Shown: positions 1 to 1,590 of the stretch, piece after piece
Position numbering within the stretch: the stretch's first letter is position 1
Layout of the letters: the number at the start of each line of letters is the position of its first letter
From: a virus
Taxonomy: Duplodnaviria > Heunggongvirae > Uroviricota > Caudoviricetes
Direction: 5' to 3' (one strand)
Virus record (IMG/VR): IMGVR_UViG_2923159863_000006
DNA: 64,000 nucleotides
Notes under the pieces: model-generated
Databases searched by the model: none
The model's input: the letters and a program-made list of their open reading frames with translations, nothing else
Told to the model about the DNA's origin: nothing
Program-made: the position numbers and the translations under genes

Positions 1-1590
<1,590 letters not shown>

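Follow-up and report, generated by a model that had tools for sequence, protein, structure and literature searches.

The DNA analysed here is a 64,000-nt window of the IMG/VR record IMGVR_UViG_2923159863_000006 (Caudoviricetes), in which prophage DNA stands directly upstream of ybiT, the gene for an ABC-F ATPase of Pseudomonas aeruginosa. The integrase of this prophage, which is of the type found in phage JBD44, would join the phage attachment site (attP) to a chromosomal attachment site (attB) located in codons 7-10 of ybiT. The phage would thereby rebuild the start of ybiT and displace the region upstream of it, with two such elements lying in tandem in the window. The probability of this reading is put at about 0.85.

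In the proposed mechanism, a lambda-style arm-binding integrase recombines attP with attB, and strand exchange would take place inside the block ATCACCATGC. Directly after the stop codon of the integrase gene (int), attP carries a diverged ybiT 5′ end, made up of an AGGA Shine-Dalgarno sequence, the TTG start and codons 1-6. After integration, the left junction (attL) holds a complete open reading frame (ORF) for exactly the same 529-aa protein. The gene is severed from its previous leader and promoter region, which is moved more than 60 kb away, to the right junction (attR) beyond the window, and fused there to the P arm of the phage (the arm away from the integrase). Two elements with the same int/attP module in tandem would place a second copy of the 28-nt sequence at the ybiT start at their internal junction. 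The features at the left junction are as follows.

1..1590, minus strand: ybiT (PA1964-type) ABC-F ATPase gene, complete and intact, 529 aa, TTG start (from the ORF list, NCBIfam, Pfam and PDB).
1563..1572, minus strand: attL identity block ATCACCATGC, ybiT codons 7-9 plus the first base of codon 10 (from the attB/attP/attL/attR comparison).
1573..1590, minus strand: phage-supplied codons 1-6, TTG ATA TCT ACA GCT AAC (host: TTG ATC TCC ACC GCG AAT; five wobble differences, all synonymous).
1591..1620, minus strand: phage-supplied leader of 30 nt, from the int stop TAA to the ybiT TTG, identical in the phage attP.
1598-1601, minus strand: AGGA Shine-Dalgarno sequence in phage DNA, 7 nt before the ybiT TTG.
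1621..2838, minus strand: integrase of element 1, a tyrosine recombinase of 405 aa (Pfam Arm-DNA-bind_2, Phage_int_M and Phage_integrase).
1644-1649 and 1655-1660: GTACCA pair in attL, within the last codons of the element 1 integrase.

The 28-mer TTGATATCTACAGCTAACATCACCATGC (minus strand) is found at exactly 1563-1590 and 33414-33441, and no other copy is present in the window even with three mismatches; shuffled sequences give 0 expected matches. Its first copy comprises ybiT codons 1-9 plus one base, in agreement with the original prediction, made from the sequence alone, that identity between two repeat copies starts at 1563 within the first codons of ybiT. That prediction also placed the core of the attachment site in the 5′ coding end of the gene, which was borne out by alleles with an empty site. 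In seven distinct prophage-free neighbourhoods (L002-L004, L007-L010) the gene begins ...ctataggtaaagaag TTG ATC TCC ACC GCG AAT ATC ACC ATG CAG TTC, whereas the lysogen allele (window, L001, L005 and L006) reads ...ccccgcaggacaatgcc TTG ATA TCT ACA GCT AAC ATC ACC ATG CAG TTC. The same integrase adjoins ybiT in L001, L005 and L006 as in the window. From this comparison, the crossover therefore falls inside the ybiT ORF, in codons 7-10. The alleles also differ completely 5′ of the TTG. In the lysogen, codons 1-6, the Shine-Dalgarno sequence and all DNA beyond it are of phage origin.

The free phages JBD44, IME307, PAShipCat1 and YMC/01/01/P52 carry the integrase gene, its TAA, 30 nt and TTGATATCTACAGCTAACATCACCATGC, followed by the non-ybiT sequence GATTTTTTT... 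with two arm-type repeats. Together with the lysogen and empty alleles, these attP sites uphold the further claim that phage DNA replaces the native 5′ end and upstream region of ybiT. The reciprocal product was found in 11 independent attR junctions of IMG/VR prophage contigs (L097-L108), where the host leader is followed by host-type codons, ATCACCATGC and the phage P arm. The 10 bp of ATCACCATGC are the sole stretch identical in attB (L003), attP (JBD44 and others), attL (window) and attR (L097-L108), and the flanking sequence segregates as expected of a reciprocal exchange inside the block. Since nothing else is common to the four sites, strand exchange must occur there. Inspection by eye for core-type inverted repeats around the 10-bp block gave nothing convincing.

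The same 18 nt of codons 1-6 occur in the free genomes of JBD44, IME307, PAShipCat1 and YMC/01/01/P52. At codons 2-6, every codon that can be changed synonymously at its third position differs between host and phage; the chance that five random differences among 18 positions all fall on third positions is 6/8568. The expectation of a near-native N-terminus was right in that the phage restores the N-terminus, but it fell short, as the restored peptide is exactly native and all five differences are synonymous. It was also considered whether ybiT might be a pseudogene in this strain. The gene is intact, and an exact protein look-up in public assemblies found the identical 529-aa protein in 7 prophage-free and 3 lysogenic P. 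aeruginosa neighbourhoods. A scan of IMG/VR with a degenerate pattern yielded many examples of attL, attR and attP; since this pattern permits only wobble changes, its hits were excluded as evidence for synonymous-only variation.

The integrase of element 1 lies 30 nt upstream of ybiT in the same orientation, and its region is 96-97% identical to JBD44 at the nucleotide level. It scores 60 bits for Phage_integrase and 48 bits for Arm-DNA-bind_2. Residues R225, K260, R339, H362 and Y371 are invariant in an alignment of 18 homologous sequences and are, by motif position, the putative catalytic residues. The hexamer GTACCA occurs in 15 plus-strand copies in the window, 6 of which lie in the two att regions. 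At the second copy of the 28-mer, the core is flanked by four of them in two pairs 11-12 bp apart, one in the P arm (33312/33324) and one in the P′ arm (33495/33506, in the last integrase codons). The pairs are kept in the attP sites of JBD44, IME307, PAShipCat1 and P52 and fit putative arm-type sites of the arm-binding domain. Overall, the catalytic residues, the arm sites and the short identity region together indicate a lambda-type system with an arm-binding domain. The stop codon TAA of int is in the frame of the ybiT TTG, 10 codons upstream (window 1588-1623), while most other species have a 20-nt gap; the shared frame is probably coincidental.

Some points weigh against the reading given above. 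Sequence comparison resolves the exchange no further than the 10-bp block, and gives neither the cleavage positions nor the overlap length. That all the differences are synonymous could stem from descent of the phage copy from the ybiT of another host, as opposed to selection on the phage. A scan for consensus sigma-70 promoters upstream of ybiT gave no match in the lysogen or in the empty site; as it is silent in the empty site too, its silence is therefore uninformative. Lastly, element 1 is a mosaic and probably defective, and for the tandem arrangement an artefact of assembly is conceivable.

The upstream region of prophage-free P. aeruginosa, which the prophage displaces, is itself of integrase origin. 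There, 303 nt separate ybiT from a divergent gene, and about 235 of them (L003, 5763-5995) align collinearly with integrase genes of other Pseudomonas species, over their last ~220 nt and the leader; L002, L004 and L007-L010 have the same sequence. The remnant is related to the leader type 'ttgataggtaag', with 63-68% identity and blastn E values down to 6e-22, and no comparable blastn match to integrase ends was found elsewhere in the 6 kb of the locus. Smith-Waterman scores against four loci of that leader type (L075, L080, L045 and L057) lie 30-40 standard deviations above dinucleotide shuffles; for a locus of the other leader type (L018), z = 11.5. The aligned integrase segment encodes the conserved ...RHTYAT..MNPAFIA..LGHS...STYARW..., and its frame is destroyed in the remnant. 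Because it is a conserved integrase region that is encoded there, descent has run from the integrase to the host region. The remnant is established at the nucleotide level. A protein-level search of the empty site by default tblastn with 13 related integrase C-termini gave no match, and a relaxed search with the window integrase gave a weak collinear match (E = 0.009).

The species-wide attB of P. aeruginosa is thus a fossil attL with a decayed integrase 3′ end, and the ybiT promoter of this species must therefore be located within DNA derived from an integrase or right next to it. In hosts other than P. aeruginosa (IMG/VR; L111, L139, L156, L174, L180 and others), attR junctions have truncated integrase C-termini of 78-148 aa with 85-95% identity on their host side, directly before the TTG. 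Their presence at many attR junctions implies that reuse of decayed attL sites is common and that new prophages adjoin older remnants. Retention of the integrase-proximal end is suggestive only, and could be trivial, as deletions cannot extend into ybiT.

Two leader types are found in the phage P′ arms, '...ccccgcaggacaagcac' and '...ttgataggtaag...'. The latter resembles the P. aeruginosa leader, while the former resembles, by eye, ybiT leaders without an integrase in IMG/VR contigs. The JBD44-type arm has the 'ccccgcaggacaagcac' kind of leader and the P. aeruginosa fossil leader is of the 'ttgataggtaag' kind. On the simplest reading, the surrogate segment of the phage would be a diverged homologue of the ybiT 5′ region from another lineage. 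On the simplest reading likewise, only ATC ACC ATG, which is constrained by its amino acids, stays identical across hosts and offers a portable target, as is the case with tRNA genes.

With its native upstream region displaced, ybiT of a lysogen most likely owes its transcription to phage DNA, through read-through from int or through a promoter located in the 3′ end of int or in the P′ arm. This is proposed because of the analogy with phage HK022 at torS of Escherichia coli, where it was demonstrated experimentally that a phage promoter on the P′ side (the integrase-proximal arm) drives torS and changes its regulation (Carey et al. 2019, PMC6814406). A scan found no terminator-like site between int and ybiT on the ybiT strand, and the phage leader shows no strong fold (z = +1.2). 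Rfam yielded no credible match for either the native or the lysogen leader. A split terminator of the lambda sib kind, in which an int terminator in attP would be destroyed by integration, was considered and rejected, as RNA folds of attP (window and JBD44), attL and attB gave z values of -0.35 to +1.2.

Alternatively, the insertion might silence or strongly down-regulate ybiT, in the manner of 'active lysogeny', in which case no promoter would be left and the intact ORF would be irrelevant. The displacement of the previous upstream region by more than 60 kb speaks for this, as does the lack of a sigma-70 consensus match in the int 3′ end or leader, and int is usually repressed in lysogens, as is also stated for HK022 (PMC6814406). 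It is nonetheless unlikely. Start codon and peptide are kept exactly in the phage copy, and so is the distance of the Shine-Dalgarno sequence, which would be pointless for a silent gene, and the arrangement persists in 37 species-level genomes. Moreover, the only DNA that prophage-free P. aeruginosa has between the divergent gene and ybiT consists largely of an int 3′ remnant, and DNA of this kind can thus evidently support expression; the promoter scan is equally blank in that empty site, and HK022, placed correspondingly, provides torS with a promoter (PMC6814406).

The second copy of the 28-mer had been taken as the other att end of the prophage. It is instead an internal attP-like junction (P-O-P′, with O the core) between tandem prophages with one integrase/attP module, and not attR, because its left flank is the tail-spike end of element 1 and its right flank a second integrase. 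The features that define the tandem arrangement are listed below.

1563..5904: direct repeat copy 1 (att, int and early genes), from blastn self-comparison.
33414..37772: direct repeat copy 2 (start of element 2), from blastn self-comparison.
31017..33293, plus strand: tail-spike/tail-fibre gene, the last of element 1, adjoining the P arm (PHROG tail protein and tail spike families).
33294..33471, minus strand: internal attP-like junction P-O-P′ between the tandem elements.
33294-33413: P arm of the junction, with GTACCA at 33312 and 33324.
33414-33423: identity block of the junction, followed by the surrogate codons (33424-33441) and the leader (33442-33471).
33472..34689, minus strand: integrase of element 2, identical in protein sequence to that of element 1, with GTACCA at 33495 and 33506.
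12389-13543, plus strand: second integrase type of 384 aa (phrog_1), inside the element 1 segment 5905-20808.
33280..33441, minus strand: chimeric ORF of 53 codons (MISTANITM, then P-arm sequence), running from the ybiT start mimic in attP and antisense to the tail-spike end.

The direct repeat of 4.36 kb is 99.4% identical over 4363 columns. Its first difference lies 1947 nt in, so the right edge of the core is unreadable from the two window copies. Homology to the JBD44 attP begins at 33311, and these ~100 nt correspond to the non-integrase arm of that site. Element 2 extends past the end of the window, within which no host-type attR sequence is present. The true attR is beyond the window and is predicted to read ...ctataggtaaagaagTTGATCTCCACCGCGAATATCACCATGCGATTTTT....

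Element 1 switches exactly at the end of the repeat (5904/5905) to a middle segment (5905-20808) that is unrelated to element 2 and matches temperate phages of the CF60a/BR133a/PAN70/JBD68 type on the opposite strand. A second switch, at ~20808, leads to virion genes of the YA3/Ab31/HB2107-3I podovirus type. Element 2 has immunity, replication and terminase genes that are missing from element 1, which is probably a defective mosaic. A 'Mu-like' label for 5905-20808, which was based on a 'putative transposase' in the match list, was supported neither by annotation nor by PHROG and was withdrawn.

The odd composition of element 1, which combines a JBD44-type int module with another phage type that has its own integrase and with podovirus virion genes, might also point to an assembly artefact. 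There would then be only one prophage, and the junction, whose structure is exactly that of a circularised attP, would derive from reads of excised circular phage DNA. This is quite unlikely. The repeat copies are 99.4% and not fully identical, and small indels move their spacing from 31851 to 31868, which argues for two physical copies; the P arm at the junction is also unlike the one common in JBD44-type phages. For phages that share an integrase, insertion in tandem at one att site is nothing unusual, and in any case the conclusions on attL would stand unchanged.

The 53-codon chimeric ORF at the junction is probably incidental. In JBD44-type P arms the frame of the ybiT start mimic stops after 5 codons, and in many other phages a stop is found 2-3 codons past the core (CAG TTC TAA/TAG/TGA). 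At attR, where the native start ends up, such early stops may limit the translation that begins from it. Element 2 further contains a 58-nt direct repeat (46597-46654 and 47306-47363, 97% identical, 709 nt apart).

The ORF at 1..1590 encodes a ribosome-associated ABC-F ATPase of the YbiT subfamily. Its product scores 1013 bits against the NCBIfam YbiT equivalog NF011646 (cutoff 762) over profile positions 1-529, and Pfam identifies two ABC_tran domains and the inter-domain linker ABC_tran_Xtn. The structure of E. coli YbiT (PDB 9njf), which starts LVSSNVTMQFG in the alignment, is colinear with the product from residue 2 (E = 3.6e-168 over the first 252 aa). In other genomes the neighbours of ybiT are fap, bacA, a LysR-type regulator and a flavodoxin-like reductase, and on the other side braZ and an eptA-like gene. 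The locus is therefore that of P. aeruginosa PA1964, a gene number that is also used in PMC8088628.

The TTG appears to be the real start of ybiT, because the E. coli YbiT and NCBIfam alignments begin at residues 1-2 and because codons 1-9 vary at wobble positions only. This variation was assessed at 38 loci, namely the window and 37 ybiT loci adjacent to an integrase, which were retrieved by integrase similarity and hence independently of the target sequence. Codons 1-9 occur there as 16 nucleotide haplotypes that encode a single peptide, LISTANITM, while the 30 nt 5′ of the TTG are variable at 26 of the 30 columns. It is improbable that translation begins instead at the ATG of codon 9 (1564-1566), which would move the crossover to the start codon and leave the phage to supply an untranslated leader only. 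This ATG is in frame, 24 nt downstream of the TTG, and TTG is a weak start codon. However, E. coli YbiT aligns from residue 2 and the equivalog from profile position 1, and the 24 nt before the ATG vary at third codon positions only, against the 26 variable columns of the leader. The host and phage leaders also each have a 4-nt Shine-Dalgarno match 7-8 nt before the TTG.

Finally, it is very improbable that the 28-bp repeat is itself the att core and its two copies the attL and attR of a single prophage of ~32 kb, as the original prediction implied, for although the copies are identical (28/28), are absent from shuffles and have the integrase adjoining the first of them, that core is refuted for the window by the seven prophage-free attB alleles (which differ from the 28-mer at 5 positions and share only the 10-bp block with attP), by the attR of 11 other lysogens (with host-type instead of phage-type codons), by the extension of the identity over 4.36 kb, of which the 28-mer is just the left edge and which takes in the second integrase gene, and by the left flank of copy 2 (a phage tail-spike gene, then a P arm homologous to that of JBD44). 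A 28-bp identity does exist in some phages, though not in this one, as the attP of the metagenomic contig L106 (IMG/VR, 2158-2185) has 28 nt that match the host-type codons of P. aeruginosa exactly (TTGATCTCCACCGCGAAT...). This attP variant adjoins an integrase end that resembles that of Stutzerimonas kirkiae (L017), and the phage may have picked up the host-type codons via an exchange outside the usual block.

The pairing of this integrase with ybiT extends beyond P. aeruginosa. In a scan by integrase alignment with one genome per species, 80 loci were obtained, and at 37 of these a related int stops 5-71 nt (mostly 20 nt) upstream of the ybiT orthologue. A sister clade of integrases (~55-60% identical) ends ~24 nt upstream of folE (GTP cyclohydrolase I, Pfam).

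Loci with a folE-adjoining integrase: L022, L024-L029, L031-L039, L041, L042, L047, L050, L058, L061, L068, L073 and L074.

At one of them, L035, divergence sets in after ...AACTACACCGC, and this suggests that an att edge lies within the first 9 codons of folE. The folE clade thus seems to have the same habit of replacing a 5′ end, at a second housekeeping gene. Other clades are co-oriented with, and located ~120 nt upstream of, a Peptidase_S11 (pbpG-like) gene (L056, L065, L067, L071, L082, L085, L087, L088 and L092-L096) or ~190 nt upstream of an ornithine/aspartate carbamoyltransferase gene (L044, L048 and L063).

This style of integration is known. Phage 21 and the element e14 reportedly insert inside the icd gene of E. 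coli (work of Campbell and co-workers), where a diverged duplicate of the displaced end, with mostly synonymous differences, is said to keep the gene intact. There it is the 3′ end of the gene that is replaced, and its promoter and translation start are untouched, whereas in ybiT the 5′ end is exchanged. Integration at the 5′ end of a protein gene had been called unusual. It is indeed uncommon, but it is documented, both for the dusA-specific integrases (DAIs; PMC4482086) and for HK022 at torS (PMC6814406).

The DAIs insert in the 5′ end of dusA, and their replacement sequence provides a suitable substitute for the N-terminal beta-strand; putative promoters are also present after integration (Farrugia et al. 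2015, PMC4482086). As in the ybiT system, an integrase family has a single site as its target, within the 5′ end of a conserved housekeeping gene, and the element replaces this 5′ end. Like the ybiT integrases, DAIs are present in Pseudomonas, among other genera. The targets, however, are different (dusA as opposed to ybiT, with related clades here adjoining folE, pbpG-like and carbamoyltransferase genes), and the replacement N-terminus of DAI elements is a new sequence, whereas the ybiT phage keeps the peptide exactly by means of synonymous codons. The ybiT system thus works like the DAI elements and is not filed among them on account of its target.

At torS, int of HK022 likewise stands beside the junction, co-oriented with the host gene, and the native promoter is a whole prophage away. 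The exchange of HK022 occurs in the 5′ untranslated region of torS (PMC6814406), in contrast to codons 7-10 of ybiT, where the phage provides the Shine-Dalgarno sequence, the start codon and six codons. The torS promoter was shown experimentally, whereas a phage promoter of ybiT is putative. SpyCI islands at the mutL 5′ end of Streptococcus pyogenes are another phage-like element at the 5′ end of a housekeeping gene. A promoter of the element affects downstream host genes there, and a growth-phase-dependent mutator switch results (PMC3430984); integration interrupts mutL expression, while the ybiT ORF is rebuilt intact.

The phages DO4, JBD88b, PSA04, IME307, PAShipCat1 and YMC/01/01/P52 are relatives of JBD44 with the same integrase (about 93-97% nucleotide identity) and the same attP with the 28-mer. 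The rest of both window elements is not JBD44-like and resembles YA3/Ab31/HB2107-3I-type podoviruses and another phage type. The insertion of JBD44 was experimentally mapped 'between PA14_39110 and PA14_39130', at the resolution of a gene interval and with no mention of a crossover in a coding sequence (PMC9112912), and another prophage was mapped 'between PA1965 and PA1964' (PMC8088628). The target had until now been mapped only to a gene interval. For the crossover in the ybiT coding sequence, the synonymous surrogate, the genus-wide pairing and the fossil integrase, no description was found in the searchable literature, outside of which lie ~1.4 million further PubMed Central articles, mostly subscription-journal manuscripts.

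Phages of the JBD44 type are in wide laboratory use, and clinical P. aeruginosa genomes commonly carry a prophage at the ybiT site. Beyond inserting 'between PA1964 and PA1965', such prophages replace the expression signals of an ABC-F translation factor, a possible source of lysogen phenotypes unrelated to phage cargo genes. As the flanking direct repeats are perfect over 10 bp only, att finders based on repeats will misplace the boundary. The fossil integrase and the truncated integrases on the host side suggest a ratchet, in which prophage decay must spare the integrase-proximal end once the promoter has been replaced. It is possible, though rather doubtful, that the Pseudomonas ybiT start region (promoter, leader, start and six codons) has been repeatedly overwritten by one integrase family which, with its sister clades at folE and other genes, would be specialised in taking over host expression signals, so that expression is phage-derived everywhere. 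The fossil integrase end is fixed in all P. aeruginosa sampled. If the overwriting is true, ybiT would be expressed from phage-derived DNA in every P. aeruginosa strain, and from live prophage DNA in lysogens, where its expression could couple to the state of the prophage. If a phage-borne promoter is confirmed, ybiT would be a second, genus-wide example of the principle known from HK022 and torS.

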